Source: Candidatus Melainabacteria bacterium (lineage in GTDB: Bacteria > Cyanobacteriota > Vampirovibrionia > 2-02-FULL-35-15). From it: a stretch of DNA of 64,000 nt. Both the position numbers and the translations under genes were made by a program. Shown here in pieces: positions 14,558 through 39,601 of this stretch. The notes under the pieces were generated by a model that was given only the letters and a program-made list of their open reading frames with translations, was not told the DNA's origin and made no database searches. Positions within the stretch are counted from its first letter, which is position 1, and each line of letters opens with the position of its first letter. The DNA lies in assembly GCA_023250195.1 (NCBI GenBank), contig JAHFBF010000001.1, positions 406,661-470,660 of the forward strand, written 5' to 3'.

Positions 14558-14573
14558 GGATTAAATATTAACA

Positions 14574-14608
14574 CAGCGTAGAGACACAGTTACCGCGTCT
14601 CTACGCTG
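14574..14608 (-). terminator. 12-bp stem hairpin overlapping the stop of 14601..14894
   Basis: CAGCGTAGAGAC-N11-GTCTCTACGCTG between the LuxR-type gene and the PMM gene start. Confidence 0.4.
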
Positions 14609-15279: not shown

Positions 15280-15579
15280 TTAATTTACTGCAGGCACCGG
15301 TTCATCTTTTTCAAATGGACTTAGATTCAATAGACCTGCATAAATAGCTATTGCTGTAGCTTGAGATCTATTAGAAATATTTAATTTATTAAATATACTG
15401 GATATATGATTTCTAACAGTAGAAGAACTCAACACCAGCACTTGGGATATTTGTTTGTTCGTCTTGCCTTGAGCAAGGTGAACTAATATTTCTTTTTCCC
15501 TTTTAGTAATTGGTAGCTCAGTTATTCTGTTTACAAATCCAAGATCGAGAAGAGGACTTTCTTTTAATTGTAATTCCAT
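15280..15579 (-). CDS. LuxR/GerE-family HTH transcriptional regulator (paralog of 14601..14894)
   Basis: REKEILVHLAQGKTNKQISQVLVLSSSTVRNHISSIFNKLNISNRSQATAIAIY, nearly identical HTH to the neighbour. Confidence 0.8.
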   Translation of the reverse strand: MELQLKESPLLDLGFVNRITELPITKREKEILVHLAQGKTNKQISQVLVLSSSTVRNHISSIFNKLNISNRSQATAIAIYAGLLNLSPFEKDEPVPAVN

Positions 15580-15755
15580 TATATTTCTCCTTATTTCTGC
15601 CTGCCCTGACCTTAATACTAAAAAACTATGTTTAAGGCAGCGCTAAGATATCAAACTTTTTATTTATTCCTGGAATATTTCTAATTTAATGCTTTTAAAT
15701 TAATTTTTTAATCAAAAGTTAACAAAATAAACACTCAAAGTTATAATTAATCTGC

Positions 15756-17468
15756 ATGCCAAAAGAAAAAGACGAAAAGCCTACCAAAGAAGAGCAAATA
15801 AAAGAAAACAGTGACTACTTACGTGGCACTATAAAAGAAGAATTAGCAAAAGATTCTTCTCGTTTCGATGAAATAAATACAAAACTTTTAAAATTTCATG
15901 GTATTTACCAGCAGGATAATAGAGACACAAGACAGGAAAGAATAGCAAATAAGCTTGAAAAAGAATATTCTTTCATGATTCGTACAAAACTTCCTGCAGG
16001 GGAGCTGACTTCCAGGCAATATATTGCCTTAAATGAAATCTGTGACAAATACACAAATAAGACTCTCAGACTTACAACCCGCCAGACAATTCAATTTCAC
16101 GGAACTATCAAAGGTAATTTACATAAAACATTAAACGAAATAAATAAAACTTTAATTCTTACTTATGGTGCATGTGGTGATGTAGTAAGAAATATAATGG
16201 CTTGTCCGGTTTGTGATATTGATTCTGAATATTCAGTTAACCTGGCCGAGATAGCAAAAACAATTTCAGATCATTTACTGCCAAATACAAGATCATATTA
16301 CGAAGTCTGGATTAATGAAGAAAAAATCGACCTTGATGATAAAAAAGAAGAAGAACCTCTCTATGGAAAGACCTATTTGCCAAGAAAATTTAAAATTGGA
16401 CTTGCTTTGCCGCAGGATAACTGCATTGATGTGTTTACACAGGATATAGGTCTTGTAGGGATTACAGAGGAACCTGTCATTGCGAGGAGCAAAGCGACGA
16501 AGCAATCTGCTGACGCTACACGAAATGACGTGAAACTATTAGGCTTCAATCTCCTTATCGGCGGCGGACTTGGACATCATCACAACAAACCAGAGACATA
16601 CCCACGATTAGCAAGCGAGCTTGGTTTTATTACACCAGAGAAGTTAGTTGATACTCTTAAAAAAATAGTAACTATTCAAAGAGATTATGGCAGTAGAACA
16701 AATAGAAAACATGCCAGAATGAAATATTTAATTGATGATAAAGGGCTTGACTGGTTTAAAACAGAATTAGAAAAGAGAACAGGGGCCAAATTAGAATCAC
16801 CAAAAAAGATTACAGAATACAAAATGTGTGACCATCTTGGATGGAACAGACAGAGGTCAGAGGTCAGAGATCAGAGATCAGAAAACAGAGATCAGAAAAC
16901 AGAAGAAAAAAGTGATTTATGGTATTTAGGATTATTTATTGAAAATGGAAGGATTACTGATACTAATAAAAGACAAATAAAAACTGGATTACGGGAAATA
17001 GTTGAAAAATTTGAGCCTGGCATCCGATTAACCCCACATCAAAATGTCGTTTTAACAAACATAAAAGAAGAAAACAAAAGTAAAATAAATGAACTTCTGG
17101 CAAAGTATAAAATTTACACAAAAGAAACCGTTTCACAATTACGAAGAAATTCAATGGCATGTCCTGCCCTGCCTACATGCGGACTTGCACTGGCTGAGGC
17201 TGAGAGAACACTGCCGGATATAATTGATAAACTTGAAAAACTTGGATTTGGCAATGAAAGAGTATCCATCAGAATGAGCGGCTGTCCAAACTCATGTTCC
17301 CGTCCACCAGTAGCAGAAATTGGAATTATTGGAATGAGTGCAGATAAATACAATATTTATACAGGTGGAGACTTTGAAGGAACCAAATTAAACAAATTAT
17401 TCAAAGAAAATATTTTAGGCGAGAAGGTTGCTTCTGAACTAGCTTTAATACTAAAGAACAAGCAATAA
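15756..17468 (+). CDS. cysI: sulfite reductase hemoprotein (siroheme/4Fe-4S), CysI-like
   Basis: N-terminal LRGTIKEEL...KFHGIYQQDNRDTRQER...SFMIRTKLPAG...RLTTRQTIQFHG matches CysI/NirA; Cys cluster CPALPTCGLA and GCPNSCSRP for the siroheme-[4Fe-4S] site. An NirA-type assignment cannot be excluded. Confidence 0.8.
   Translation: MPKEKDEKPTKEEQIKENSDYLRGTIKEELAKDSSRFDEINTKLLKFHGIYQQDNRDTRQERIANKLEKEYSFMIRTKLPAGELTSRQYIALNEICDKYTNKTLRLTTRQTIQFHGTIKGNLHKTLNEINKTLILTYGACGDVVRNIMACPVCDIDSEYSVNLAEIAKTISDHLLPNTRSYYEVWINEEKIDLDDKKEEEPLYGKTYLPRKFKIGLALPQDNCIDVFTQDIGLVGITEEPVIARSKATKQSADATRNDVKLLGFNLLIGGGLGHHHNKPETYPRLASELGFITPEKLVDTLKKIVTIQRDYGSRTNRKHARMKYLIDDKGLDWFKTELEKRTGAKLESPKKITEYKMCDHLGWNRQRSEVRDQRSENRDQKTEEKSDLWYLGLFIENGRITDTNKRQIKTGLREIVEKFEPGIRLTPHQNVVLTNIKEENKSKINELLAKYKIYTKETVSQLRRNSMACPALPTCGLALAEAERTLPDIIDKLEKLGFGNERVSIRMSGCPNSCSRPPVAEIGIIGMSADKYNIYTGGDFEGTKLNKLFKENILGEKVASELALILKNKQ
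16849..16906 (+). repeat. tandem heptamer-like repeat (CAGAGRT/CAGAAAA) translated in-frame inside cysI
   Basis: CAGAGGTCAGAGGTCAGAGATCAGAGATCAGAAAACAGAGATCAGAAAACAG encodes RQRSEVRDQRSENRDQKTEE, an apparent insertion relative to the CysI core around HLGW...LFIENGRI. Confidence 0.7.
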
Positions 17469-17538
17469 ACTTTTAATCTATATTACAAATTAAACTTGAG
17501 GTAGAATTTAACGCAGGTTAGCTTAAAAGGAGATCAAA

Positions 17539-18846
17539 ATGCTTATAAGAATATTAATTATTTTATCAATGATTTTAGGGAATTGTTTTTCATTACAAGC
17601 AAATGCACAGAATGAAAATCTAAGTCAGCCAATTCCTGGACAATTTATAGTTAAGTTTAAAGATCAAAAAGGAAATGCCTCAGATAAAATAGGCAATCTG
17701 GAAAAAAAGCATGGTGCAATGACAGATAATGTTTTTGAGAACTCATTTAAAGGAGCAACTATACATGTGCCTCCTGGAAAAGAAAAAGATGTAGCAAATG
17801 ATCCAGATGTTGCACAATTAGTTCAGGACTTTACTGTTTATGCAGTAGACAGAAATAACCATGATGACCATGGTTCACCAGAAATAGAAGCAAATGGAAT
17901 GTCAAGTGCTTCTATGGGTGGAGCACCAGCTCAGGTAATCCCCACAGGAATTAACTGGATTGATGCTGAATTAAATACTACAAATGAAGGTAATGGAGTA
18001 ACAGTAGCTGTACTGGATACAGGAATTGATTTTAACCATCCTGATCTTATGGTGAACACATTTCTAAGCAGAGATTTTTCCGGTGACAATACCGGTGGAA
18101 ATGATAATAATAGAAGTATTGGCGGACATGGTACACATTGTGCAGGTGTTATTGCTGCACTGGATAACTCAATAGGTGTATTAGGCACAGGATCTAAAAT
18201 TACTCTTGTCTCAGTAAAAGTTTTAAGAAGTTCCGGCATTGGGAGTTTTAGCGGCATTATAGCCGGACTTGACTATGTTACTGCAAACGCAGGTACCATA
18301 GCAGTTACAAATTCAAGCTTTGGAGCAAATGGAGGGATAAATCCATCTCAGAGCTATTTAGATGCAGTAAATCTTTTACACGCAGCCTATCAAAGAGCAG
18401 CAAATGCAGGAGTAGTAAATGTAGTCGCTGCAGGAAATGAATCCGTAAATGTCACCACAAACAATTGTGCTCCAGCAATGTACCCGGAAGTAATTACAGT
18501 ATCAGCAGTAAGCGACAGCAATGGTATTCAGGATAGTGCTGATACATGGGCATACTTTAGTAACTTTGGAACTGAAGTAGACATTATTGCACCAGGAGTA
18601 AATATTCTTTCAACAGCTCTTGGTGGCGGATATAGTTCTCTTTCCGGTACAAGTTTTTCATCACCATATGTAGCCGGGACAGTAGCTCTTTATATTTCAA
18701 AGAATGGCAGACCAGCAAATGGAAATGCACAACTTTTAAGTTCACTTATAAGTACGATTTCAAAGACACGCTCTCCACTTCCAAGTGAACCATCCGATGG
18801 ATATACAGAACCTTCCTGTTACGCTAATGGAGCAGGTTTAAAGTAA
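17539..18846 (+). CDS. secreted subtilisin-like serine protease (peptidase S8)
   Basis: RBS AAGGAG; signal peptide; catalytic triad motifs VAVLDTGID (Asp), GHGTHCAGVIAA (His), GTSFSSPYVAG (Ser). Confidence 0.9.
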   Translation: MLIRILIILSMILGNCFSLQANAQNENLSQPIPGQFIVKFKDQKGNASDKIGNLEKKHGAMTDNVFENSFKGATIHVPPGKEKDVANDPDVAQLVQDFTVYAVDRNNHDDHGSPEIEANGMSSASMGGAPAQVIPTGINWIDAELNTTNEGNGVTVAVLDTGIDFNHPDLMVNTFLSRDFSGDNTGGNDNNRSIGGHGTHCAGVIAALDNSIGVLGTGSKITLVSVKVLRSSGIGSFSGIIAGLDYVTANAGTIAVTNSSFGANGGINPSQSYLDAVNLLHAAYQRAANAGVVNVVAAGNESVNVTTNNCAPAMYPEVITVSAVSDSNGIQDSADTWAYFSNFGTEVDIIAPGVNILSTALGGGYSSLSGTSFSSPYVAGTVALYISKNGRPANGNAQLLSSLISTISKTRSPLPSEPSDGYTEPSCYANGAGLK

Positions 18847-18889
18847 GCATTATTTGCAACATTTCCTTTTCTCCAATGTCTCATAATAC

Positions 18890-20161
18890 ATGAGTATTGT
18901 TGAAAATATTACCCGTGCGTTTAAACATAAAAATTACAGAAATTTTTTTTTCTGGCAGTTCTTATCATTTACTGGGACATGGCTTCAAAATACTGCACAA
19001 AGCTGGCTTATATATCGCCTAACTGGCTCTGCTTTATTTTTAGGTCTGGTTAGCTTTGCAAGTTCATTGCCTGCATTAATACTTGCACCAATATCCGGAG
19101 TAACTGCCGATCGGTTTAACAGAAGAGATATACTGCTTACAACCCAAATATTATGCGTAATACAGGGAGTAATTTTGTCAGCGTTGTTTTTTAGTGGCCA
19201 TATAAACAAATGGCAGATTTTAATTCTTGCGATTTTTCTTGGCATGGCAAATTCTTTTGATGTTACAGCCAGACAAACATTTATTCCGCTTCTTGTTACA
19301 AAAGGCGATCTTTTAAATGCAATTGCACTTAATTCATCCATGTTTAATGCAGCCAGAATCATCGGTCCGGCACTTGCCGGAATATTAATATCAAAATACG
19401 GTGAAGGCGTTTGTTTTATTTTAAATGTACTTAGTTATTTGCCTTTTATTGTATTTTTATTTCTTGTAAACATAAAAGAACAAAAAGCAAAAGAGTTTAC
19501 ATCTTCATTAGCACATTTAAAAGAAGGTATTTCATTTGCCTGGAATGCACTGCCTATAAGAAATTTGCTTCTTTTACTTGGCATATATAGTCTTTTCGGT
19601 ATGTCATTTACAACCTTAATGCCGATTTTCAGCGATCAGATATTACATAAAGGAGCAAAAGGACTTGGAATATTAATGGGAGCATCAGGGATTGGTGCTG
19701 TAGTTGGAGCATTGTTTTTAGCATCCAGAGAAAAGGTTCTTGGCATAAAAAAAATAATTGCTCTCTGCAGTGTAGTATCAAGCATTTGTATCTTTATTTT
19801 TGCTTTTTCAAAAATATATTTGCTTTCAATCTCACTCCTAACCATAATAGGATTCTGTTCAATCATAATAATCTCAGGCAGCAATACTGCAATGCAGGCA
19901 ATGTCTCCTGACAACTTGCGAGGAAGAGTTATCGGGCTTTTTTCAATGATGTTTATGGGAATATTTCCGCTTGGCAGTTTAACTGTAGGCTTTTTAGCAC
20001 ACATGTTAGGTGCACCAATAGCTGTCTCAATCGGAGCTGTGATTTGCTTCTTGATGGCAATATATTTTTCAATGAAAGTTCCAATGTTGACTAAAAAAGC
20101 TAAGGAGCTGATTTGCACACAGGAAAGAGCAGGTATTGTAATAGAAGAACAGATTAGTTAA
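18890..20161 (+). CDS. MFS transporter
   Basis: 12-TM hydropathy pattern; loop 2-3 motif GVTADRFNRRDILL typical of major facilitator superfamily. Confidence 0.85.
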   Translation: MSIVENITRAFKHKNYRNFFFWQFLSFTGTWLQNTAQSWLIYRLTGSALFLGLVSFASSLPALILAPISGVTADRFNRRDILLTTQILCVIQGVILSALFFSGHINKWQILILAIFLGMANSFDVTARQTFIPLLVTKGDLLNAIALNSSMFNAARIIGPALAGILISKYGEGVCFILNVLSYLPFIVFLFLVNIKEQKAKEFTSSLAHLKEGISFAWNALPIRNLLLLLGIYSLFGMSFTTLMPIFSDQILHKGAKGLGILMGASGIGAVVGALFLASREKVLGIKKIIALCSVVSSICIFIFAFSKIYLLSISLLTIIGFCSIIIISGSNTAMQAMSPDNLRGRVIGLFSMMFMGIFPLGSLTVGFLAHMLGAPIAVSIGAVICFLMAIYFSMKVPMLTKKAKELICTQERAGIVIEEQIS

Positions 20162-20454
20162 GTTTTTTTCAATTCTAATTTTATACTTGCTAATTCTGAC
20201 AAGACTCTATCCATCTTATTTTCAAGTCTATCAACTCTCTTTTCAACAGATCCAATTTTTTCGCCAAGAGAACCTATACTTTTATCCATGGATGTCAGTC
20301 CAAAGCTGTTCCATGATGTGGCCAAAAAAATTGAAAGCATAATCGGTAAAGTCATCTGAATAAATGGAGTATTTTTCCAATTTTCAAGGAATCCAACCTT
20401 TAACTCTAAAGCTTTTACTCTTTGTTCAATAGGATCAATCATAGCTTTATTCAT
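20158..20454 (-). CDS. hypothetical small membrane/coiled-coil protein
   Basis: ORF only; one hydrophobic segment flanked by heptad-like charged regions. Confidence 0.35.
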   Translation of the reverse strand: MNKAMIDPIEQRVKALELKVGFLENWKNTPFIQMTLPIMLSIFLATSWNSFGLTSMDKSIGSLGEKIGSVEKRVDRLENKMDRVLSELASIKLELKKT

Positions 20455-20504
20455 AATTATACCTTCATAATACAGATCTGATAGAAGCGCGATAAATCGC
20501 GCTT

Positions 20505-20861
20505 CTACGCAGGCTTTTTCTTTGAATCCAATGACTGTATTGAATTAGCCAGGATAGTCAGACGATAATGGTTTTTATTTTCCTTGTCTTTCCACCTATC
20601 AGGTTTTAGTTCACCATGAACTACAATCATTCTGCCTTTAGTCAGATAATTTTCAGCAAACTCTGCCTGCTTACCCCAGGCTACAATACCATCTATAAAG
20701 TCTGCATCAATTTGCTTTTCACCCTCCTTATGTTTTTTTCTAATATTCCTGACAGCAAGGCTTAAATTTGCTTTGAAATATTTTTTATTTATACCTACCT
20801 CTTCGACCTCCGGATCTCTCGCTAATCTACCGATTAATGTAACTTGATTTTGAGCTGACAT
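20505..20861 (-). CDS. single-stranded DNA-binding protein-like OB-fold protein (no acidic C-terminal tail)
   Basis: NQVTLIGRLARDPEV...GIVAWGKQAEFAENYLTKGRMIVVHGELKPDRWKDKENKNHYRL follows the SSB OB-fold pattern; canonical DDDIPF-type tail absent. Confidence 0.6.
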   Translation of the reverse strand: MSAQNQVTLIGRLARDPEVEEVGINKKYFKANLSLAVRNIRKKHKEGEKQIDADFIDGIVAWGKQAEFAENYLTKGRMIVVHGELKPDRWKDKENKNHYRLTILANSIQSLDSKKKPA

Positions 20862-20922
20862 TTTGAACCTCCTTTTTAATATAAATCCAGTAGAGGCGAG
20901 ATAATCCCGCCTCTACAAAGAT

Positions 20923-21132
20923 TTATTGTTTTTTTGCTTTTTTATGTTTCTTTGTTTTCTTTGTTGACTTTTTTTTCTTTGGAGTTTCGTTTTCACTATC
21001 TTCCAAAGCTGCAGTTTGGACTTCCTGAACACCTGCGCTAAGCTGTTCTGAAGCTGTTTTTATCTCTTGTGCTTTTACAGAAGCATTAAGAAACAAAGAT
21101 ACAGCACAAAGTGCGATTATTGTTTTTTTCAT
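20923..21132 (-). CDS. small secreted Lys-rich protein
   Basis: Internal Met (MKKTIIALCAVSLFLNASVKA) gives a signal peptide; the ORF-track N-terminal extension to 21228 runs through inverted repeats and is probably not translated; C-terminus poly-Lys. Confidence 0.4.
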   Translation of the reverse strand: MKKTIIALCAVSLFLNASVKAQEIKTASEQLSAGVQEVQTAALEDSENETPKKKKSTKKTKKHKKAKKQ

Positions 21133-21337
21133 TTTCTTCTCCTTATTGTTTCTACCAGAAAAATCCCTACGAGATTTTCCCTTTCCCTTTCCGGCATGCA
21201 AGATATTCTTCCTCAGAACATCTTGCACTTATATTTTGTACATGAGAAAAATTTCTCATGTCCCGGCTCAGAAAAAAAATTATATTAAAAAAGAGGATTT
21301 GATTTCAATAGATGATCCTGTAAATTCTTTATAAATC

Positions 21338-21404
21338 TGTAACCGTAGGTTACACGAATTGATAAAAAATTTTTAAGGTTCGTGAAATGTAACCGTGGGT
21401 TACA
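21338..21404. promoter_or_regulatory. pair of 17-bp palindromes TGTAACCGTAGGTTACA and TGTAACCGTGGGTTACA (operator-like)
   Basis: Two TGTAAC-N5-GTTACA sites with 50-bp centre spacing; the same motif pair recurs at 41284..41330. Confidence 0.5.
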
Positions 21405-21411
21405 TTGTTAC

Positions 21412-22731
21412 TTAAAGAAATTTCTTTTTTATGTATTCAAAGTGTGAGTAAGTAAGAAAGAAAAGTAGTTCAATTACAAAAAGTAGCTGATAAAAATATC
21501 TTGATTCAGGCTGGTAGGGAAATGAAACAATAATTACAGAAAGGGGAATTGAAATTAAAAATAAGACCTTACTAATAGGTATAATTTTTTTCTTAAGCGG
21601 GGAATATAGCAGCAAGCTAAAACAGGACATAAACACCATTAACCACTTTGAAATATCTATTAATGGATGGAAATATCTGGCACTTGAAAATCCAGGGAAT
21701 AAGTTTCCAAGAAAGAGTTCCTTTAAATTTAAAACCCGCTCTTTAAGCCAATGAGGATTTTTTTTCATACATTCCCACCCTAAGTCATAAAAATACTTTT
21801 GATCATTTATTGGATGATTTGTTTTAAATGTGGGCCATTCCTTGTGCTTCCAGTTCAGCGGTGGACCAAGCGAAAAATTATGTTTTTTATATGATGAAGA
21901 TAGTCCACGGTATTTACACTGGGCAAGAAAAAAATTTGCTCCTGTACTGTTATGCAGACCGGATACATTTCCTTTTGAAATATAAAATATCTGGGAACTG
22001 GCAATAAAGATGACTAAAAAGAAACCAAGAGAAAAAATCACGCTTTTTACAAGATGACTAATTCCAGACTTCTTTCCGGAAAGTAAAAGATAAAACAAGA
22101 AAGACAGGAAAATTGGAGCTAAGCTGGGCTTTAATGCAACTGTAAATCCAAACACAATGCCACTAAAGAATATTCTCGGGTTTTTATTATTAGAACTGAA
22201 AAGCAAATAAACTGAAAAAATAAAAACAGGGATAGCAATATTTTCTGTAAGTATAAATGCGTTTAAATATATCAATGGATAGCTAAATGCATAAAACAAA
22301 GTAGCAAGCATGGGAATAGGTGATTTATTAATTAGATCTTTAGCAATAAAATAGAAAAACACTATAGAAATAGAAGATAAAAAAATATGAAAAGTTAACA
22401 CACTTTCCAGCAAATGTTTATATAAACCAATAAAAGCAATAATCTTAAAAAGGAATGAAAGATATATTTTAAAAAAAACAGGCCATGCTGCCCAGTGAAA
22501 CATTGAAAAAATATTACCTTCATACATTGCAAGCGCTCTATTCCAATACCCACTCATATCACTTACAAGGTAATGTTTATAATCAGTGAAATAAAAAACA
22601 TAAACAATTCTTGTTATGAATGAAGTAACTACTATTAATGCTAAGTAGTAATAATCTGTGGGCAGTTTCTTTAATCTATCCAGCAAATCATTTTTGTAAG
22701 TTTCTAATTGGGTCATTTGAATCTTAGTCAC
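21412..22731 (-). CDS. polytopic membrane protein, possible GT-C-fold glycosyltransferase (ArnT/PMT-like)
   Basis: 439 aa, about 11 predicted TM helices with loops, resembling glycosyltransferase family 39/83-type topology; no decisive motif read. Confidence 0.4.
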   Translation of the reverse strand: MTKIQMTQLETYKNDLLDRLKKLPTDYYYLALIVVTSFITRIVYVFYFTDYKHYLVSDMSGYWNRALAMYEGNIFSMFHWAAWPVFFKIYLSFLFKIIAFIGLYKHLLESVLTFHIFLSSISIVFFYFIAKDLINKSPIPMLATLFYAFSYPLIYLNAFILTENIAIPVFIFSVYLLFSSNNKNPRIFFSGIVFGFTVALKPSLAPIFLSFLFYLLLSGKKSGISHLVKSVIFSLGFFLVIFIASSQIFYISKGNVSGLHNSTGANFFLAQCKYRGLSSSYKKHNFSLGPPLNWKHKEWPTFKTNHPINDQKYFYDLGWECMKKNPHWLKERVLNLKELFLGNLFPGFSSARYFHPLIDISKWLMVFMSCFSLLLYSPLKKKIIPISKVLFLISIPLSVIIVSFPYQPESRYFYQLLFVIELLFFLTYSHFEYIKKKFL

Positions 22732-22874
22732 CAGTTTTGGTTTCTTTTAGCTCCTAAGTATATATTTCATCTAGATACCTGTAAAGCCAAAAAGAAAAGT
22801 TGGGTTTTGTATTGAACGCTAAAAAAAATAGCTCAATTTCTTGAGCTATTTAATTAGTGTAATTTACGGAAGCT

Positions 22875-24785
22875 TTATTTTGTTCTTGCTCTTCTATCTC
22901 TAGTTAATGCAAGATCTTTAGATAATATAGTTCTTTCCGTTGCAAGAACTACTACTGAATTTCCCAAATCTATCATTGAACCTGATAGGGTAAATTTAAC
23001 TGTAATAACCCCGTTTTTATTTACCGTTACCTGTTCATCTCCTTGACTTATGCCGCTTGGGAATACAGTAGCAACAATATCATTGGTGATACTGTTAGCA
23101 GTTTTGTTGTGCAGTCCTTTCCTTGCAGCAACTAAAGAACGACCTCTTAAGGTTATAGTAGCTTTGTTGCCATGATGTACATTCAAAGACAATCTTCTTA
23201 TTACAGTAGGGCTTACAAGAGGATTAAAGTTAATTATCTCAATAATTCCACTTAGTGAGAGTCCATTACTTAAATTAAATGAAAATACTGCATCGCCTGT
23301 ACTGACTGCATTCCCATCTGGTAAAAGCAGAGTAAGAATGTATTTGTTAGGTTCATTAGAAATACTCATTATTTCATACTGAAGATCATTGAATACATTT
23401 CCATTACTGGATGAAAGGCTTAAAGAGAGTATTTCTGTATCTATTAAGGGCAATGAAGACCTAATTTCAAAAGATGGGTTAGAACCAGGATAAGCAGTTC
23501 CAACTTTCCCAATAAACTCATCTGGAATTAATGGAAGTTCAACTGCATTTGGTAGTTTTGGAGTTCCTGTAATATCGATATCATATCCTCTTCCTGCTTC
23601 AAAGCCACCGGAGGAAGAACTAGAAGAGGAACTACTAGAAGAAGAGCCGGAAAATTGGTCTGTTCCTAAATTCCCTGAAGATGAAGTTCCTGGTACACAT
23701 TCCGGGAGATTCGAACAAATTTCTGGATTAAATTCACAGCAGCCAAATATACAGCAGTTGTTTCCGCACATTGTCCATTGACAGTCTGGAACGTTAGATA
23801 TTCCTCCTCCTCCTACAGGTACACAAACTGGGGCAGGATTGTTACAGAGTAGTGCTTCTTGATGACGAATAACTGTTCGAGTAGGTAAATTGTCTCCTAC
23901 TGTACAACAGGCAGGTGTATTCTCTGAACAAGATGGTGAACCTAAAGAAGGGCAAGCAGGAGTAGAACCAGTAGGACATGTTACTGCTCCATCTACACAA
24001 CTTATACCACCTGAAGAAGAACCTCCTGATGATGTAGAACTTGAAGTTGTTGATGATGTTGAGCTTGTTGAACCTGATGTTGAACTTGAAGTGCTTGATG
24101 TTGAGCTTGAAGTGCTTGATGTTGAGCTTGAAGTGCTTGATGTTGAGCTTGTTGATGATGATGTGCTAGAAGAACCATGATGATCATCGTCGTCATCATC
24201 ATGACCGCCTGTTGATGATGTACTACTTGATGTTGAGCTTGTTGATGATGATGTGCTAGAAGAACCATGATCATCATCGTCATCATCATGACCGCCTGTT
24301 GATGATGTACTGCTTGATGTTGAACTTGAAGTGCTTGATGTTGAGCTTGAAGTACTTGATGTTGATGAGTTAGATCCTGAAGTCGATGAGTTGGATCCTG
24401 ATGTTGATGAACTAGAACTTGATGCAGGATCACACTTAACCTTGTCATCACACATTGACATAGAATCACAACAATTTGGTTCTCCATCTATGCAAGATAA
24501 AGTATCCATACCACTACATGATGCTACTTCTCCACTAGTACAAAAAACATTCCCATTGGAACAAAATGCAGTTTCTTTATCTTTCTTTGTCTTTATTGAA
24601 TGTGAAGTTCGTGATATAGAAGTGTAATTTCTATTTCTACCATTTGAATATGCTTGTGCTGCAGAATAATCTTTTGTCTTGAATAGAGCCAGTGTTGGTA
24701 AATTAAGAATTAATATTAAAGTAAGACTAACTAAAAATTTAAAGGCCTTTAATTTGATGTTTTTATTTGATTCTTGATTTTGCAT
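22875..24785 (-). CDS. secreted mucin-like Ser/Thr-rich, Cys-rich repeat protein
   Basis: Start taken at the Met preceded by AAGGA (signal/anchor KAFKFLVSLTLILILNLPTLALF); long (SST/SSS)n tracts, repeated GGHDDDDDDHGSSSTSSS units, Cys-rich blocks at both ends. Confidence 0.7.
   Translation of the reverse strand: MQNQESNKNIKLKAFKFLVSLTLILILNLPTLALFKTKDYSAAQAYSNGRNRNYTSISRTSHSIKTKKDKETAFCSNGNVFCTSGEVASCSGMDTLSCIDGEPNCCDSMSMCDDKVKCDPASSSSSSTSGSNSSTSGSNSSTSSTSSSTSSTSSSTSSSTSSTGGHDDDDDDHGSSSTSSSTSSTSSSTSSTGGHDDDDDDHHGSSSTSSSTSSTSSTSSSTSSTSSSTSSTSSSTSGSTSSTSSTTSSSTSSGGSSSGGISCVDGAVTCPTGSTPACPSLGSPSCSENTPACCTVGDNLPTRTVIRHQEALLCNNPAPVCVPVGGGGISNVPDCQWTMCGNNCCIFGCCEFNPEICSNLPECVPGTSSSGNLGTDQFSGSSSSSSSSSSSSGGFEAGRGYDIDITGTPKLPNAVELPLIPDEFIGKVGTAYPGSNPSFEIRSSLPLIDTEILSLSLSSSNGNVFNDLQYEIMSISNEPNKYILTLLLPDGNAVSTGDAVFSFNLSNGLSLSGIIEIINFNPLVSPTVIRRLSLNVHHGNKATITLRGRSLVAARKGLHNKTANSITNDIVATVFPSGISQGDEQVTVNKNGVITVKFTLSGSMIDLGNSVVVLATERTILSKDLALTRDRRARTK
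24001..24420 (-). repeat. tandem coding repeats (Ser-tract and HD6H units)
   Basis: Repeated GATGTTGAGCTTGAAGTGCTT and CATGATCATCGTCGTCATCATCATGACCGCC blocks; the opposite-strand ORFs 23890..24180, 24002..24487 and 24331..24627 are artefacts. Confidence 0.8.
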
Positions 24786-24950
24786 TTTAATATCCTTAAT
24801 TTCCCTTGAAACTTCTAAAACTACTAGAAGTAAAATCATATGACACAGTTAATACAAAGTCAATAAATCCTAAAAGTTAATTTTAGATCTTAAGCATTAA
24901 TCTTAAACTCTTTATGTTTAGCTTTAGATATATCTATATAAGATTAAAAA

Positions 24951-24980
24951 TTTAGGGTGCACTGTTACATGCACCCTAAA
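24951..24980 (-). terminator. rho-independent terminator downstream of 25016..27964
   Basis: 11-bp stem TTTAGGGTGCA/TGCACCCTAAA with 8-nt loop, followed on the transcript by a U-run; near-identical copy at 28132..28157. Confidence 0.7.
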
Positions 24981-25015
24981 AGCTTTTCACAAAGAAATGC
25001 GATTAATTGCGTTCT

Positions 25016-27964
25016 CTACTGCCCTGCAGGGAAGTCACAAATTACACGGAAGCCACGAGTACTCCCTGTAGCTGTAGTTTGATTTCTAAAGTCTGCTGTA
25101 ATAGGCGATGTAGCATCACTGGTTGAAGTATAATTTCCTCCACGAGTTATTGCATATTGAGCATCAGTACTATCCGTAAACAGTTTACCGCTATTCTTAC
25201 CACCATTTAAGTCAGCAGTAGCTCCAGATTGTGTTGGAAGACCTGATCCTTCAAAGTCTATGTCTACAGCAGCAGCACCACCTGCAATATCCTGAAAATT
25301 AAAGACACTGTTGTTTGTTGTAAATGGCAGTACTATTCCAGCTCCTGGATAGCCAGAATCAACTATAAAATCTGAACCACCAGACATAGAAGAATTTGTA
25401 ATCGTAAGGTCTCCCCATTCTTCTACATTACCAATCAAGTCATATACCTGCTTATCACCATCAAATGCACTATTTGAGTTAGTTACATCATCAGCTATTG
25501 CACTGGATGCAAATGTAGTACCATCAGTATTCTTAGTAGCTGAACCATCCAAAATATGTCCCCAGCTTTTAAAGCCAGTACCAGTTAAACATCTATCTCC
25601 AGTACCACTTTGATTTGGATCATCAGCACATTGGAATGAAGCACTATTTCTTAGATCTCTGTTTCCATCCCTGGTATTTCCTCTTTCATTCCAACCATTT
25701 GTAGCGGTTGCACCAAAGATGCTTTTTTGTTTTGCAAATCTGCCCAGTATATAAAGTGCTGTCCATTCCTTATTTCCAATAAGTTTACACGATCCTAAAG
25801 ATGAAATTTGGGCACTGGAAGCAGATGCGTTTGCTTTTGCAGTTGAGTGGCTTATGTTAGTCCAAGGTACTACATTTCTCTGACTGACAGGAATAGAAGA
25901 ACTGCCCTCTGCGGTAGCAGTAGCATCTGCTTTTGATGCTTCATATTTATTAATCCAGAAACCCCCAAAAACAATTCCATTAATAATAAATCTTGGTATT
26001 CTTACCATTCTTGTTGTACAAAGTGAAGATGGTGATACATCACATGAGCTTGTTGAGAAGGTCTTTTCATCTGAGTATGAATTCCAGCTAGAGGAAACTT
26101 CCTGAACTGTAGGAATATCATTTGCTCCTTGGCAGTCAGCCACTGTACATGACCCACTTACGTTTATATCTTCAGTAGCTGTATCACATGAACCATTGCC
26201 GTTTAAATCCCAGCAATTTAAACCATTAGTTCCATTGGTACCGTTAGTTCCGTTGGTTCCATTTGCTCCATTAGTCCCATTGGTTCCATTTGCTCCGTTG
26301 GTTCCATTAGTTCCATTACAGACATAATTTGTTGCTGTGACTTCACCGGAATCTAAAGTATTGTCATTATTTGAATCAAGCCCTGATTCTACTTTCTTGC
26401 CACCAGTAGAACAATTTGTTCCTGCTGATTCTGTAGTAATCTTTACCAAACTGTTTAAACCATTAGTTCCATTGGTACCGTTAGTTCCGTTGGTTCCATT
26501 TGCTCCATTAGTTCCGTTAGTTCCGTTAGTTCCATTGGTTCCATTACAGACATAATTTGTTGCTGTGACTTCACCGGAATCTAAAGTATTGTCATTATTT
26601 GAATCAAGCCCTGATTCTACTTTCTTGCCACCAGTAGAACAATTTGTTCCTGCTGATTCTGTAGTAATCTTTACCAAACTGTTTAAACCATTGGTTCCAT
26701 TGGTACCGTTAGTTCCATTGGCTCCGTTTGCTCCATTGCAGACAAAAGATGTTGAACTTACTTCACCAGAATCAAGCACACTATTTCCATTAGCATCAAG
26801 ACCAACTTCTATTTTTCTTCCACCTGTTGCACAATTTGCTCCGGCTGATTCTGTGGTTGATTTTGTAAGTGCATTATTTCCACCCATTCCATCACTACCA
26901 TTGCTTCCTGCATTTCCAGCAGTTCCAAGTGGAATAGTAAAAGTCAGGTTACAAAGAACCGGATCAAAAAACGCATCAGCCTTTGTCCCTGGTGCACCAT
27001 TATTTGCTGAGATCATTAATAATGCATTTAGATCATTACAGACACCCATACCATCCATGCCATTAATCCCATCCATTCCATCCATAATTACAACGGTAGG
27101 GATAGTTTCAGGAGACAAACTATTTGTTCCAAGGGTCTGATTATTTACAAATACTCCACCTACAATAGTTACTGTTGAGTTAAGAATCGGACTTGTAATA
27201 GTTATATCTCTAGATCCAACTGGAGCATCACTTTTCGGAGTAGCTAACACATCCAAAGTTGAATCATCTAAAGCTATAGTCTCTCTTACAGTAATATCAT
27301 TATTGCTGAATGAAACTTCTGTAAATGCATCTAATCCTTTACCTTTAATTGTAAGTTTATTTTCTACCCCGGCCTTTAGATCCCGTGTTATTGAATCAAG
27401 CCTAAACTCAGGTAGAGTAAACACAATCGTGTCAGCAGAATCATTGCCATCAACAGTAGCTCTTAAAGTATATTGGCCTGGTTTTAACCCTTTTACAAAA
27501 ATTTTGAATATTTTAAAGTCCAGGGCCTGAACTATTGAGCTTTGATTTTGAGTTTTATTTAAATTAAACGTAACTGATTGATTTTTTGTAACTATTTTAT
27601 TTTTACCTGTTTTTATTAAGTTTTGATCTTCTCTAAGCTCTGATATTCTAAATATCTTTAATCCAGTCATTAAAAGTGTGGCATTGTCAATTCCAAGACC
27701 TGTTCCCTGTGCACCAATAACTTCTACTTTTACAACCATTGCATCAGGCTTAAGTAACAGATCCAGGGATACTCTTTGATCAAGTTCTATATTATTCCTG
27801 TTATATCTGAATGCCGGCAATAAATTAGCTGATATTCTCTCTTGAGAAATTGTACTTCTGGCTTTTACTGCATAAATATTAACTGCATAAGCAGCACCGC
27901 TTTGATTCAGCAGAAGTACAGCTATTAATACAACCTTACATAGAAGACTTAACTTATTTTTCAT
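25016..27964 (-). CDS. giant secreted protein: conserved N-domain, Gly-Thr-Asn triplet tracts, Asp-rich repeat modules, C-terminal FGE-sulfatase (SUMF1)-like domain
   Basis: Signal peptide; N-terminal 330 aa nearly identical to 28187..32443; (GTN)n tracts; about 45-aa modules ...TESAGTNCSTGGKKVESGLDSNNDNTLDSGEVTATNYVCNG; C-terminal FGE-type motifs MVRIPRF...WINKYEAS, NKEWTALYILG, QVYDLIGNVEEW, TRGGNY...GFRVICD. Confidence 0.85.
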   Translation of the reverse strand: MKNKLSLLCKVVLIAVLLLNQSGAAYAVNIYAVKARSTISQERISANLLPAFRYNRNNIELDQRVSLDLLLKPDAMVVKVEVIGAQGTGLGIDNATLLMTGLKIFRISELREDQNLIKTGKNKIVTKNQSVTFNLNKTQNQSSIVQALDFKIFKIFVKGLKPGQYTLRATVDGNDSADTIVFTLPEFRLDSITRDLKAGVENKLTIKGKGLDAFTEVSFSNNDITVRETIALDDSTLDVLATPKSDAPVGSRDITITSPILNSTVTIVGGVFVNNQTLGTNSLSPETIPTVVIMDGMDGINGMDGMGVCNDLNALLMISANNGAPGTKADAFFDPVLCNLTFTIPLGTAGNAGSNGSDGMGGNNALTKSTTESAGANCATGGRKIEVGLDANGNSVLDSGEVSSTSFVCNGANGANGTNGTNGTNGLNSLVKITTESAGTNCSTGGKKVESGLDSNNDNTLDSGEVTATNYVCNGTNGTNGTNGTNGANGTNGTNGTNGTNGLNSLVKITTESAGTNCSTGGKKVESGLDSNNDNTLDSGEVTATNYVCNGTNGTNGANGTNGTNGANGTNGTNGTNGTNGLNCWDLNGNGSCDTATEDINVSGSCTVADCQGANDIPTVQEVSSSWNSYSDEKTFSTSSCDVSPSSLCTTRMVRIPRFIINGIVFGGFWINKYEASKADATATAEGSSSIPVSQRNVVPWTNISHSTAKANASASSAQISSLGSCKLIGNKEWTALYILGRFAKQKSIFGATATNGWNERGNTRDGNRDLRNSASFQCADDPNQSGTGDRCLTGTGFKSWGHILDGSATKNTDGTTFASSAIADDVTNSNSAFDGDKQVYDLIGNVEEWGDLTITNSSMSGGSDFIVDSGYPGAGIVLPFTTNNSVFNFQDIAGGAAAVDIDFEGSGLPTQSGATADLNGGKNSGKLFTDSTDAQYAITRGGNYTSTSDATSPITADFRNQTTATGSTRGFRVICDFPAGQ
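26221..26317 (-). repeat. hexanucleotide (GTTCCR/TTGGTN) tract encoding (Gly-Thr-Asn)n
   Basis: CCATTAGTTCCATTGGTACCGTTAGTTCCGTTGGTTCC...; further tracts at 26458..26548 and 26688..26740; the opposite strand reads PLVPLVP (artefact ORFs 26337..26555, 26565..27140). Confidence 0.85.
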
Positions 27965-28131
27965 TTTTGCAGCTCCCCAATTTTCTTAACTGGATAACTC
28001 TTCTCAGATCAAGACTAAGAATAAGTTAAATCCAAGTACAAGCCCTTTTGTGATCCATGGCAACCCTAAGATCATGTTGCACTGGACATCATTCACTTGA
28101 TATAAAGACAAAGTTATTTATTGCAAAAAAA

Positions 28132-28157
28132 TAGGGTGCACTGTTACATGCACCCTA
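28132..28157 (-). terminator. rho-independent terminator downstream of 28187..32443
   Basis: TAGGGTGCA-CTGTTACA-TGCACCCTA hairpin, duplicate of 24951..24980. Confidence 0.7.
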
Positions 28158-28186
28158 AAAGTTTTTCACGAAGAGGCTCTTACTCT

Positions 28187-31100
28187 TTAGAAGTCACAGA
28201 TTACACGGAATCCACGACGCTCGTCAGTAGTAGTAGTCACATCATTACCATCAATTATAAGTGGTGAAGGAGCACTGGCACCATCATTACAAGCACCACC
28301 ACGAGTTATACCGTATTGTGCATCTGTTGTAGTTGTAGAAAGAGTTCCTGAATTCTTCCCGCCATTTGTATCATTCAAGCCACCATTTGCAGTAGCAGGA
28401 AGTCCAAGTCCACTAAAAGTAGATGATGTTGATATATCTATAGAGTTAAAGATCGCTCCATCTGTCGTAAATGGAAGCACTGATCCTGCTCCTGTATAGC
28501 CAGTATCAACTACAAAGTCTGAGCCAGACATGGTAGAAGAATTTGTAAAAGTATAGTCAATCCATTCTTTTACATTTCCAACAAGATCATAGACCTGTTT
28601 ATCACCATCCAAAGTATCAGCACCTGATCCACCATTGTCATCTTTAACAGCATCTGCTGTACTACCAAGTGAAGTACCTGTCGCATTTATAGTAGCTGAA
28701 CCATCTAAAAGATGTCCCCAGCTCTTATAACCTGTTCCAGTTAAGCAGACATCGCCAGTACCACTTTGATCTGGATCATCTTCACATACAGATGAACCAC
28801 TATCTCTGCCATCTCTGTTTCCATTTCTGGTATTCCCTCTTTCATTCCAACCGTTTGTAGCAGTTGAACCAAAGAGTCCTGTACTTTTTGCAACTTTACC
28901 AAGAATATAAAGAGCAGTCCACTCTTTCATTCCTATAAGTCTGCATGAACCAATACCAGTAATTTGTCTATTTAAACTAGATGCATTTGTCTTTGCAGTA
29001 GCCTGACTTATGTTTGTCCATGGCTCTACTCTACGTTGGCTTACAGGTACACTAGAAGTTCCTTGATCTGTTGCTGTAGCATTTGCTCTAGAAGCTTCAT
29101 ACTTGTCTATCCAGAAACCACCATACTCTACACCTTTATAAGTAAACTTTGGTATTTTTACCATTCTAGTCATACTGCTCATGTCATTTGTAGTGTAGTT
29201 TACTTCATCAGATAAAGTATTCCAGTTATTCACCAAACCGATAATTGCTGCTTCCTGGCAATCATCAGCTGTATATAAACCGTCATTATTTACATCTTCA
29301 GCTGCATCATTTACACCATCTTCATCTACATCCCAGCAGTTAATTCCATTAGTTCCATTTGAACCATTGGTTCCGTTTGTACCATTAATTCCATTACAGA
29401 CATAGCTGGTAGAAGCGATTTCACCACCAGTTAGCATATTGTCATTATTTGCATCAATACCGGCTTCCACTTTCTGACCGCCAGCTGTACAGTTTGCACC
29501 TGAACCTTCAGATGTTACAACAACTAAGCTAGTTGAGCCATTGGTTCCGTTAGTACCATTAGTTCCATCAGTTCCAGCACAATCAGCAACGTCTACTACA
29601 GTATCACCATTTAGATCTTCAGTTGCTACATCACCTACTCCATTATTATTTAAATCCCAGCAGGCTTGTCCGTTGGTTCCATTAGTACCGTTAGTTCCAT
29701 TAGTTCCGTTGGTTCCGTTAGTACCATTGGTTCCGTTTGTACCATTAGTTCCATCAGTTCCAGCACAATCAGCAACGTCTACTACAGTATCACCATTTAG
29801 ATCTTCAGTTGCTACATCACCTACTCCATTATTATTTAAATCCCAGCAGGCTTGTCCATTGGTTCCGTTGGTTCCGTTAGTTCCATTGGTTCCGTTAGTT
29901 CCGTTAGTTCCGTTGGTTCCGTTAGTTCCATTAGTTCCGTTGGTTCCGTTTGTACCATTGGCTCCATTACAGACATAGTTTGTAGAAGTAATTTCACCAC
30001 CAGCTAAAGAACCATTATTATTTGTATCCAGTCCAGATTCTACTTTTTTCCCACCATTAGCACAATTTGCACCAGCTGATTCTGTAGTAACCTTTACCAA
30101 GCTGTTCAAACCGTTGGTTCCATTTGTACCATTAGTTCCGTTGGTTCCGTTTGTACCATTGGCTCCATTGCAGACATAGTTTGTAGAAGTAATTTCACCA
30201 CCAGCTAAAGAACCATTGCCATTTGTATCTATTCCAGATTCTACTTTCTTTCCACCATTAGCACAATTTGCACCGGCTGATTCTGTAGTAATCTTTACCA
30301 AACTGTTCAAGCCATTGGTTCCGTTAGTTCCGTTAGTACCATTAGTTCCATTTGTACCGTTGCATACATAAGTAGTTGATGTAATTTCTCCTCCACTTAA
30401 AGAACCATTGCCATTTGTATCAACCCCACTCTGTATCTTCTTTCCACCATTAGCACAGTTTCCACCTGGGTTTTCATTTGAGGATGTTACAAGTGTTTGT
30501 AAACCATTGCAAACATATGATGTAGCATCAACTTCTCCCGAGTCAAGAGTACTATCACCATCATCATCTACTCCTACCTGAATTTTTCTTCCACCGTTTG
30601 CACAGTTTCCACCTGGGTTTTCATTTGAGGATGTAATTAAACTGTTTGATCCATTACATGCATAAGTCGTAGAGTCTATTTCACCTGCATCAAGTGTGTT
30701 ATCTCCATCATCATCTACTCCTACGCGAATCTTTCTACCACCGCTTGGACAGTTTGCTCCAGATGGTTCGCTTGAAGATGTAATTAAACTGTTTGATCCG
30801 TTACATGCATAGGTTGTAGAGTCTATTTCACCTGCATCAAGTGTGTTATCTCCATCATCATCTACTCCTACGCGAATCTTTCTACCACCGCTTGGACAGT
30901 TTGCTCCAGATGGTTCGCTTGAAGATGTAATTAAACTGTTTGATCCGTTACATGCATAAGTCGTAGACTCAACTTCTCCAAGATCAAGAACATTGTCTCC
31001 GTCATCATCTACTCCTGCCTGAAATTTTCTACCACCACTTGGACAGTTTGCTCCGGATGGTTCGCTTGAGGATGTAATTAAACTGTTTGATCCATTACAT

Positions 31101-38120: not shown

Positions 38121-38193
38121 TGGACCCAAGCGGGTTCGAACCGCTGACCTCCTCCGTGCAAGGGAGGCGCTCTACCAACTGAGCCATGGGCCC
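38121..38193 (-). tRNA. tRNA-Ala (anticodon UGC)
   Basis: Reverse complement GGGCCCATGGCTCAGTTGGTAGAGCGCCTCCCTTGCACGGAGGAGGTCAGCGGTTCGAACCCGCTTGGGTCCA folds as a cloverleaf: 7-bp acceptor stem with the G3:U70 alanine identity pair, anticodon loop CTTGCAC, T-loop GGTTCGAAC; CCA not encoded. Confidence 0.85.
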
Positions 38194-38257: not shown

Positions 38258-39601
38258 TTATTTGAACAATTCCTGAAATCCTTTTGTATTAGTTATTTCG
38301 TCTTCTAGTTCAGGAGCAAAGACAAGACATGTTTTGACAATGTTTTCCTGACTTAATGCCTTTACTAATCCTGATACTTCTGAAAGCTCTTTTACGACTC
38401 CATTATTCTGCTTTATAAAAATTGCTTTACCGGTTTTATCAGTAACCTGATATGGTTCATATGGCTTTGCAGCTGATTGTTCAATCCCTAAATAAAAAGT
38501 TGGATCAACGTCTTTATTTTTTGAAATTGGTTTTAATTTTTCCAGAACCTCACTGATTTTATTTTTGTTAACTTCCTGACGAAACTCAAGTGACTTAAAT
38601 AACTTACGCATTGTAAAGCGACCTGATAAATCTTTCAAGATTTTGTCACCTGTTAAATCTTCTGAAAAACTTTGAATGGCTGACATAAGATAAAAATCAT
38701 CAACCCCTAAATATGGACTCAAATCAATTTTTTCTAATTGCTTTTTGTCAATATTCAACCACTCATATAAAACATGAGGAATATTTTTTGGTTTAACTTC
38801 CTTTAATCTCTCAATAATTTTTCTAAGCAAAAAGTCACATGCAAGATTTTTTTTGTGCTGGTAAACCTGCTGGTACATGGAGTATCTGGCTTGCAAATAA
38901 TGAATTACTGCATCCAACCCTACATTTTCATTTATAACCAGCAGAGGCGAAGTTCCCTCACCCCTGACTTTATCAACTTCAAGAGAAGCAATTATTCTAT
39001 CTGACCCCGTTAAACCATAAGGCACCCCGATATAATATGAATCTCTATGAAGATAATCCAGCCTATCACAATCCACATAACTCGAAATAATCTGACTTAA
39101 GTAGAGGCGGGGTAATCCAGCCTCTACTTTACCATTCATTATTTCAATAACATCATCAAGAAAGTTCTTGTCAAATTCTACAAAGAGTTTACGAATCTCT
39201 GAATCACCTTCGATAATTTTCTTTGTCCATTGCTCATGACTAAAACCTAAAAGCTTCTCAGAAGTATGGCTGAACGGACCATGTCCAATATCATGTATCA
39301 AAGCAGAAACCAATATTCTGGCTTTATATTTATTTATTTCTTCAAAGTTATCTGCCAGGTGAGTTATCATTTTCTTTGCAACAAACATTGCACCTATACT
39401 GTGACCAAAGCGGGTATGTTCTGCCCCATGAAAAGTAAACCAGCCAAGCCCCATCTGCCTTATCCTTCTCAATCTCTGAAATTCTTTTGTATCAATTATA
39501 TTTGCAAGCAAAAAGTCTATAGGATCATTCAAATTAAGCTTAATTGGCCCATGTATCGGATCTAAAAATGTTCTCTGTTTGTAAGTATTTTTTGTTATCA
39601 T
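38258..39601 (-). CDS. HD-domain metal-dependent phosphohydrolase (dNTP triphosphohydrolase-like)
   Basis: HD motif region FGHSIGAMFVAKK...LIHDIGHGPFSHTSE; carries an in-frame GC-rich palindrome at 39101..39127. Confidence 0.75.
   Translation of the reverse strand: MITKNTYKQRTFLDPIHGPIKLNLNDPIDFLLANIIDTKEFQRLRRIRQMGLGWFTFHGAEHTRFGHSIGAMFVAKKMITHLADNFEEINKYKARILVSALIHDIGHGPFSHTSEKLLGFSHEQWTKKIIEGDSEIRKLFVEFDKNFLDDVIEIMNGKVEAGLPRLYLSQIISSYVDCDRLDYLHRDSYYIGVPYGLTGSDRIIASLEVDKVRGEGTSPLLVINENVGLDAVIHYLQARYSMYQQVYQHKKNLACDFLLRKIIERLKEVKPKNIPHVLYEWLNIDKKQLEKIDLSPYLGVDDFYLMSAIQSFSEDLTGDKILKDLSGRFTMRKLFKSLEFRQEVNKNKISEVLEKLKPISKNKDVDPTFYLGIEQSAAKPYEPYQVTDKTGKAIFIKQNNGVVKELSEVSGLVKALSQENIVKTCLVFAPELEDEITNTKGFQELFK
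39101..39127. repeat. 27-bp GC-rich palindrome GTAGAGGCGGGGTAATCCAGCCTCTAC inside the HD-domain CDS
   Basis: Translated in-frame as ...VEAGLPRLY...; near-identical intergenic copy GTAGAGGCGAGATAATCCCGCCTCTAC at 20890..20916. Confidence 0.8.

Follow-up and report, generated by a model that had tools for sequence, protein, structure and literature searches.

A 27-nucleotide palindrome, probably a double-foot repeat of the REP type, within an HD-domain gene of a Melainabacteria genome

Introduction

Repetitive extragenic palindromic (REP) sequences with a GTAG tag are palindromes of 20-40 bp, with stems of 5-13 bp, that lie just after open reading frames (ORFs) and form subfamilies with complementary stem changes (PMC3733652). 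The TAG of the tag can serve as a stop codon (Di Nocera 2013, PMC3733652). Most REPs are intergenic; GTAG REPs are also known within genes, some of them with two copies per gene or with the same site occupied in related species (PMC3733652). Within one genome, REP families number tens to thousands of units, and the cognate transposase gene (PF01797) is typically flanked by the REP. The GTAG foot is a hallmark of REPs processed by REP-associated tyrosine transposases (RAYTs) (PMC6006769, PMC3733652). Double-foot REPs, which carry GT[AG]G at one end and C[TC]AC at the other, go with TnpA_REP/RAYT subclass 2.4, equivalent to Bertels group 4 (Quentin et al. 2018, PMC6006769). This subclass abounds in Cyanobacteria and Bacteroidetes and is scattered elsewhere, with signs of inter-phylum transfer, and its REPs insert in frame within the tnpA_REP genes themselves (PMC6006769). 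Here we describe a G+C-rich palindrome of 27 nt at positions 39101-39127 of a 64,000-nt stretch of a Candidatus Melainabacteria genome (contig JAHFBF010000001.1; the whole stretch is referred to as the window), where it lies within a gene for an HD-domain protein. It probably belongs to a family of dispersed REP-type palindromes of very small size and double-foot architecture.

Tiny hairpin repeats have reportedly been seen in the sister lineage as well. Elhai et al. are said to have described, in 2008, hairpin-forming small dispersed repeats (SDR1-8) of 21-27 nt in heterocyst-forming cyanobacteria; these were reportedly inferred to be mobile, were sometimes nested in other small elements and were confined to one cyanobacterial subgroup, and an RNA route of movement is said to have been proposed for them. 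By description only, the 27-mer resembles the SDRs in its size, in the relatedness of its host lineage and in nesting. No description of a Melainabacteria host or of this 27-mer was found in the literature searched. That double-foot GTAG REPs enter ORFs in frame is already known; what is new is the host lineage, the high intragenic share among the sampled copies, a series of two sites and two reading frames in one gene, and the presence of a near-identical 27-mer across phyla.

Results

When the whole window was searched with the pattern GTAGAGGC-N11-GCCTCTAC, allowing up to two mismatches, three matches were obtained (39101-39127, 20890-20916 and 14578-14604) where 0.01 were expected. A scan with the 27-mer consensus at up to seven mismatches gave four matches, against 0.0 expected from 200 shuffles. 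The copy at 39101-39127 reads GTAGAGGCGGGGTAATCCAGCCTCTAC on the plus strand; the HD gene is transcribed from the minus strand, and the sense sequence, GTA GAG GCT GGA TTA CCC CGC CTC TAC, is translated in frame 0 as VEAGLPRLY. The copy is partly decayed. Ten of 13 pairs are left, and only the eight outer pairs are perfect, since the ninth is mismatched. The intergenic copy at 20890-20916 (GTAGAGGCGAGATAATCCCGCCTCTAC) is identical to it at 24 of 27 positions. The element at 14578-14604 is a subfamily member with compensated arms, GTAGAGAC...GTCTCTAC, lying within an extended hairpin (14573-14609) with a stem of 13 bp, and its arms recur in frame in another locus (L087). In RNA folding, the three hairpins gave -18.9 kcal/mol (39101; z = -4.9), -22.3 kcal/mol (20890; z = -6.0) and -30 kcal/mol (14578-14604; z = -8.5). 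An Rfam scan of the whole window matched only a tRNA (38121-38193); the hairpins are therefore covered by no known RNA family. The half-site GTAGAGGC at 54571 was considered as another copy and ruled out as a chance match that has no partner arm.

The element was proposed earlier in a sequence-only reading, whose positions and sequences for the palindromes at 39101-39127 (coding, as VEAGLPRLY) and 20890-20916 (intergenic) hold. Their richness in G+C within an AT-rich genome was also confirmed (59% for the element and about 35% for the window), and the related hairpin placed near 14574-14608 was found, with a stem that spans 14573-14609 and a match to the pattern within two mismatches. The identity of the two copies had been given as 22/27, which the recount corrects to 24/27. 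The layout of two arms around nine free bases is right as to the palindrome and fails for the 39101 copy at its mismatched ninth pair.

The host gene (38258-39601, minus strand) encodes a protein of 447 amino acids with a Pfam HD domain (E = 1.9e-9). It matches the structure of E. faecalis EF1143 (PDB 2o6i, E = 6e-51) and, more distantly, SAMHD1, and is thus a homologue of the EF1143/SAMHD1-type deoxynucleoside triphosphate triphosphohydrolases. There were 5534 homologues, the nearest named ones being from Candidatus Melainabacteria. We aligned 28 of them, built a neighbour-joining tree from gap-free columns outside both insertion sites, and compared the DNA of nine orthologues besides the window's own gene. 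VEAGLPRLY (residues 159-167; site 1) is limited to the clade of the window protein and P0002-P0010 (at least 79% identity). The sister sequence P0012, all deeper homologues and 2o6i are four residues shorter at this site (K-TRF----LY). The nine residues are not ancestral, an outcome in favour of the sequence-only reading, and their confinement to one clade with shorter outgroups indicates a single gain. The occupied state is derived relative to the outgroups and represents a lineage-specific in-frame insertion. In an AlphaFold model of the protein (mean pLDDT, the predicted local distance difference test, 86.9; pTM 0.88), residues 159-167 lie in the loop between helices 147-156 and 166-173, and residues 160-162 have a pLDDT below 50, the lowest in the protein.

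A second patchy indel was seen in the alignment, with VCRGEVTSPLL in some sequences and DSKR in others (site 2). The peptide CRGEVTSPL led to the prediction that the same palindrome is present there in a frame shifted by one base, and the orthologue DNA bore this out. At these codons L001 carries GTAGAGGCGAAGTTACCTCGCCTCTAC, L002 carries a perfect copy, GTAGAGGCGAGGTTACCTCGCCTCTAC, and L127 carries GTAGAGGCGAGGTTACCTCGCCTCTAC with one change, while the copies in L006 and L128 are decayed. The window's own copy (38941-38967, minus strand, within the HD gene) is also decayed, with seven mismatches to the 27-mer consensus, and reads VRGEGTSPLL in frame 2 at about residues 212-221. In the model this site is a turn between strands 207-210 and 220-224, and residues 211-220 have a mean pLDDT of 65. 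The HD gene has taken up the palindrome at two separate loop positions, in two reading frames.

Close orthologues differ at site 2, some being occupied and some empty. The empty alleles are not secondary losses, because they keep the outgroup-like DSKR/ESKR. When L003 was compared with its sister L002, a mosaic profile was obtained: the 5' end had an identity of 0.93 and the part toward the 3' end one of 0.88-0.92, but over 300-700, where both sites lie, it was 0.82-0.86. Moreover, a Leu/Phe difference linked to site 2 tracks its occupancy. The mosaic profile and the linked difference imply that at least some of the patchiness is due to recombination; site 2 may have been gained once or more than once. 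It may be noted that a third indel is present in the HD protein (window 38696-38767, about residues 284-297), consisting of eight LEKIDLSP-like residues that are missing from P0002, P0003, P0009 and P0010. The DNA there is non-palindromic.

Many copies were also found within long ORFs of the related low-G+C contigs, and Pfam verified the host genes. Two in-frame copies of the GTAGAGACG subfamily lie in a FAD_binding_2/Succ_DH_flav_C gene, and another copy lies in its neighbour, a ferredoxin-like gene. A FAD_oxidored gene likewise has two in-frame copies. Single in-frame copies are present in genes for DHDPS (DapA), BacA/UppP, CN_hydrolase and LplA, in a Poribacteria sulfatase gene, and in a UbiA gene, where two orthologues carry the copy at the same site. 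Compared with the solved DapA and UppP structures, the element corresponds to a gap of 5-6 residues.

In the Melainabacteria-like low-G+C loci, 18 of 31 copies are intragenic (about a dozen independent sites) and 13 are outside genes, so that about half of the sampled copies sit in ordinary genes. Only codon offsets 0 and 1 occur in these loci; offset 2, which reads TAG, was never seen. In copies read in frame 0, the central base of the sense strand is always T or C, which avoids TAA and TGA. The peptides are VEA-x-L/S-PRLY in frame 0 and x-RGEVTSPL-x in frame 2. Members of 27 nt are intragenic in 15 cases and outside in 14, while 28-nt members of the superfamily are intragenic in one case and outside in seven, a contrast that is no more than suggestive, since some of the copies are not independent of each other.

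To follow the 27-mer beyond the HD gene, one genome per species (596 Gb) was scanned with GTAGAGGCG-N9-CGCCTCTAC. At least 118 stretches matched, from many phyla and with many unrelated loops; the arms alone therefore recur among a huge number of bacterial hairpins. Among the matches listed, about 15 share the core RGGTNACCY, that is, the full 27-nt palindrome. These came from the Melainabacteria metagenome-assembled genome (MAG) MFRM01, with perfect copies on three contigs, from several Chloroflexota, and from Poribacteria, Acetothermia, Patescibacteria, WOR-3 and Omnitrophota. By MAG labels, six phylum-level groups beyond Melainabacteria carry the 27-mer. Their loci are not mis-binned Melainabacteria contigs, since they have a G+C content of 39-66%. 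The Bacteroidota matches listed share a different core, CAAAWTTTG. A metagenome scan with the full 27-mer gave 36 stretches, mostly of 32-36% G+C, and metagenome Ga0209515 had 15 copies on 14 stretches. The search beyond the window that the sequence-only reading had called for thus yielded further copies, from a Melainabacteria MAG as well as from metagenome stretches, in many cases inside conserved genes and in frame. A scan of viral contigs for the 27-mer gave no match and so no evidence for its carriage by phages.

The arms fall into subfamilies with complementary changes (GAGGC/GCCTC, GAGAC/GTCTC and GAAGC/GCTTC). Other family members have unrelated cores (CGTAGCATGCTACG, CGCGATTAATCGCG), the arms being the conserved part. 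For the core GGTNACC, a role in restriction or methylation was considered and dropped, as no evidence was found for it. The family is multi-copy in Melainabacteria-like genomes, and its copies decay after acquisition. The copies are derived, dispersed and decaying, and those within genes pass a filter of frame, length and loop position.

In L132 (about 2700-2870) and L162 (about 1060-1170 and 3940-4050), the 27-mer is centred in a shared composite of about 64 nt, with the layout GGGAGGCGTC-nn-27-mer-nn-GTGACGAAGCTCTGGAGGGTACC. It is this composite that invites the comparison with nested SDRs. An LplA-like gene and two paralogous genes for large membrane proteins carry it in frame. Elements of this kind may be nested or extended and would add 40-50 residues.

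The intergenic copies lie a few bases past stop codons, a REP-like placement. The copy at 20890-20916 is located between two minus-strand genes, 6 nt past the stop of the ORF at 20923-21228 (minus strand) and 28 nt upstream of the ATG of the SSB gene (20505-20861, minus strand). At 14578-14604, a GerE/LuxR-type gene (14601-14894, minus strand) takes its stop codon from the CTA, which reads TAG on the minus strand. A further GTAG-footed palindrome at 20481-20508 (minus strand, GTAGAAGCGCGATTTATCGCGCTTCTAT) supplies, with its foot TAG, the stop codon of the SSB gene. In the low-G+C loci there are 59 G+C-rich perfect hairpins with a stem of at least 9 bp; 39 of these have GTAG within the first four positions and four more carry TAG, though most of these loci had been fetched for carrying the 27-mer. 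Hairpins played no part in the choice of the window or of the loci retrieved through the HD gene; there, 17 such hairpins were found, eight with GTAG and four more with TAG.

Intrinsic terminators were considered for these hairpins. The 39101 copy was ruled out as a terminator by its location inside an ORF, and the 20890 copy by its lack of a T-run, UGGAUUUAUAUU following it on the transcribed strand. In a terminator scan of 12000-31000, which did not extend to 39101, only 14609-14573 was called terminator-like.

Two intergenic positions carry different family members in different genomes. At orthologous loci 6-19 nt past the stop of the HD gene, a different double-foot palindrome of 28 nt is present (L001, 7603-7630; L002, 1699-1726; L007, 2368-2395); the window has the tRNA gene (38121-38193, minus strand) at this position instead. 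This indicates rapid turnover of such elements at one intergenic position downstream of the HD gene. Just downstream of the SSB gene, two genomes carry unrelated members, ATAGAGGCGTCC...GGCGCCTCTAT in L006 (20810-20844) and GTAGAAGCGCG...CGCGCTTCTAT in the window (20481-20508).

With respect to classification, the repeat combines GTAG as its foot with a G+C-rich arm of 9 bp (GTAGAGGCG), a short core that is palindromic and usually reads RGGTNACCY, and a mirror arm that ends in CTAC. All family copies begin with GTAG and end with CTAC. Three of the four stem bases that follow the foot (AGGC) are G or C, in agreement with a published search rule (PMC6006769). The unit of 27 nt, the stems of 9-13 bp in perfect copies and the folds of -19 to -30 kcal/mol are of REP size. 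Mobility is indicated by the gain of site 1 in one clade and by occupied and empty states of site 2 among close orthologues. As to copy number, the four copies in the 64-kb window, those on three contigs of MFRM01 and the 15 of Ga0209515 would suit a family dispersed within one genome. The strict single-tag definition of a REP asks for an unpaired GTAG at one end (PMC3733652). In the 27-mer, GTAG pairs with CTAC, and the repeat is therefore filed as a double-foot REP and not as a canonical single-tag one.

The 27-mer resembles the REPs of subclass 2.4 in architecture and in frame-preserving coding insertion, but its insertions are in housekeeping genes, whereas theirs are in tnpA_REP, and no cognate RAYT was found here. 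It is like the GTAG REPs in palindrome size, post-ORF position, donation of stop codons, arm subfamilies and double insertion per gene; it differs in its paired GTAG and in a much higher intragenic share (about half). A likeness to Rickettsia palindromic elements (RPEs) had been suggested in the sequence-only reading. The analogy is right: in-frame colonisation of ORFs by palindromic repeats is common to the two, and both are tolerated in surface regions. The family is a different one. The 27-mer is set apart by description, with its 27 nt, its GTAG/CTAC ends and its Melainabacteria-like host, while RPE-1 is roughly 100-150 nt long. The intragenic repeats of R. conorii are of the CGTC class and have been equated with RPE-4/6 (PMC3733652).

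Discussion

The element may spread in the form of a single-stranded DNA hairpin, with cutting and rejoining at the GTAG foot; E. coli TnpA_REP reportedly binds and cleaves in a foot-dependent way. The enzyme would be a REP-associated HUH/Y1 tyrosine transposase, similar to RAYT subclass 2.4; alternatively, new copies would arise by conversion from other copies. Insertions within genes would survive only if their length is a multiple of three (27 nt), if they fall in one of the two frames without a TAG stop, and if the site is a surface loop. The copy in the HD gene would be a tolerated passenger in such a loop. The mobilising step is one that we infer, because no cognate RAYT was found.

RAYT genes were sought by tblastn (with the RayT of L015 and with an E. 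coli YafM sequence), by a motif regular expression and with a hidden Markov model of 120 RayT sequences. Weak matches in L111, L112 and L154 proved spurious, being ribosomal protein L31 or low-complexity antisense of a membrane gene. The one RayT gene (PF01797) seen next to a palindrome with these arms belongs to the Oscillospiraceae locus L015, with about 40 nt between it and GTAGAGGCG...CGCCTCTAC; its homologues are named RayT by the Joint Genome Institute (JGI). The gene (4028-4552, minus strand) is frameshifted just before the YIDTNP motif and carries internal REPs, a trait of subclass 2.4. When its protein was used as a query, the best 120 matches were Clostridia-type or unnamed RayTs, which gives no verdict on Melainabacteria. 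The RayT genes of Clostridia (L015; L165, 3001-3558; L166, 3001-3540) have internal GTAGGGACA[CT]GGC...GCC[AG]TGTCC REPs in their coding sequence.

Several results weigh against a RAYT-mobilised REP. Searches of the window and of about 300 kb of Melainabacteria-like low-G+C loci yielded no RAYT, and two further RayT loci have single-foot internal REPs only, with no flanking GTAGAGGCG palindrome. The copy count for the source genome rests on a 64-kb window of a contig of at least 632 kb. Net length rose by 12 nt at site 1 and by 18 nt at site 2, and DapA and UppP gained 5/6 residues. As these gains are below 27 nt, the insertions are not clean cut-and-paste into present-day empty sequence. Both empty sites are already foot-like, with CTTTAT against CTCTAC at site 1 and, in the DNA alignment, AGTAAACG-GCTGG against AGTAGAGG...CTACTGG at site 2. 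Finally, the occupancy of site 2 is patchy and out of step with the tree, and needs recombination or repeated gains. Gains of less than 27 nt could follow from foot-guided targeting, from small deletions in the variable loops that went along with insertion, or from conversion by other copies.

Much of this would fit an origin without a dedicated transposase, by local template switching or quasi-palindrome correction, or by short-patch gene conversion at foot-like sites. The gains of 12 and 18 nt in place of 27, the likeness of both empty alleles to one arm, the occupation of the same site in non-sister lineages and the lack of a RAYT in the loci searched are all in its favour. We nevertheless regard it as unlikely. 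Local fold-back cannot yield the same 27-mer, together with its class of variable cores, at unrelated loci and in six further phylum-level groups, conversion would still require a donor family whose origin is left unexplained, and the GTAG foot points to processing by RAYTs (PMC6006769, PMC3733652).

Still less probable is selection of the hairpin as an mRNA or DNA signal of the HD gene (a pause site, an RNase or termination site, or a protein-binding site), as opposed to passive insertion. Its stability at 39101 (-18.9 kcal/mol, z = -4.9) speaks for such a signal, as do pairing-preserving changes on both arms (GAGAC/GTCTC in L002 and GAAGC/GCTTC in L127). However, these compensated variants match arm subfamilies found elsewhere, and conversion from other copies explains them equally. 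The decayed site 2 copy folds through G-U pairs as sense RNA (-15.5 kcal/mol, against -6.3 kcal/mol for the antisense), yet across the orthologues the sense/antisense asymmetry runs both ways and no consistent asymmetry was found. In L003 little of the hairpin is left (-3.2 kcal/mol), in L008 it is weak (-7.4 kcal/mol), homologues outside the clade do without it, and the same 27-mer is present in about a dozen unrelated genes at unrelated positions. We thus found no evidence for a functional enzyme part or a conserved mRNA signal in the HD gene, and the element there would be a passenger.

That the copies are ordinary G+C-rich terminator hairpins and VEAGLPRLY an ordinary variable loop is scarcely credible: the recurrence of the arms with many unrelated loops (at least 118 matches in 596 Gb) would suit such a coincidence, but it is refuted by the window statistics (expected number about 0), by the site 2 prediction confirmed in orthologue DNA and by the 36 metagenome stretches with the 27-mer, while about 15 of the 118 matches listed share RGGTNACCY at a per-match chance of about 1/16384 (about 1/128 for fully palindromic cores), the 39101 copy is inside an ORF and the 20890 copy was not called in the terminator scan.

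A bolder extension of the REP explanation, which we put forward only tentatively, is that a 27-mer of exactly nine codons routinely colonises coding sequence by foot-guided integration and is shared almost unchanged by seven phylum-level MAG groups. It may be suited to this by being stop-free in two of three frames on both strands and by encoding loop-friendly peptides such as RGEVTSPL. Guidance by foot-like targets may also explain the repeated use of sites and the gains of less than 27 nt. If this is true, the element would be among the smallest colonisers of coding sequence known.

As a double-foot REP, the 27-mer extends REP-type repeats to a non-photosynthetic sister lineage of Cyanobacteria. 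The HD gene offers a natural series of two sites, each empty, perfect or decayed, that is useful for studying the entry of palindromes into genes, the tolerance of 4-9 extra loop residues and the rate of decay. Such elements give conserved genes lineage-specific indels and G+C-rich hairpins, which matters when Melainabacteria MAGs are assembled, annotated, aligned or placed in phylogenies. Spurious short ORFs with VEAGLPRLY- or RGEVTSPL-like peptides should be recognised as repeat-derived. The near-identity of the 27-mer across phyla gives a handle on the horizontal spread of its mobilising enzyme.

Two further observations concern other repeats. A homologue of MnmA (L129, about 3200-3330) contains another apparent insert, ...ASPHASLGINSAKQSHNQNMQSEIASSGFALLAMTPKRV..., which may derive from a different palindromic repeat. 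In addition, the window holds a second palindrome family, TAGGGTGCACTGTTACATGCACCCTA, at 24951-24980 and 28132-28157. Its flanks are also conserved, with an A-run before and AAAAG[CT]TTTTCAC after. It resembles a repeated bidirectional-terminator-like element, and its foot is TTAG/ATAG instead of GTAG.

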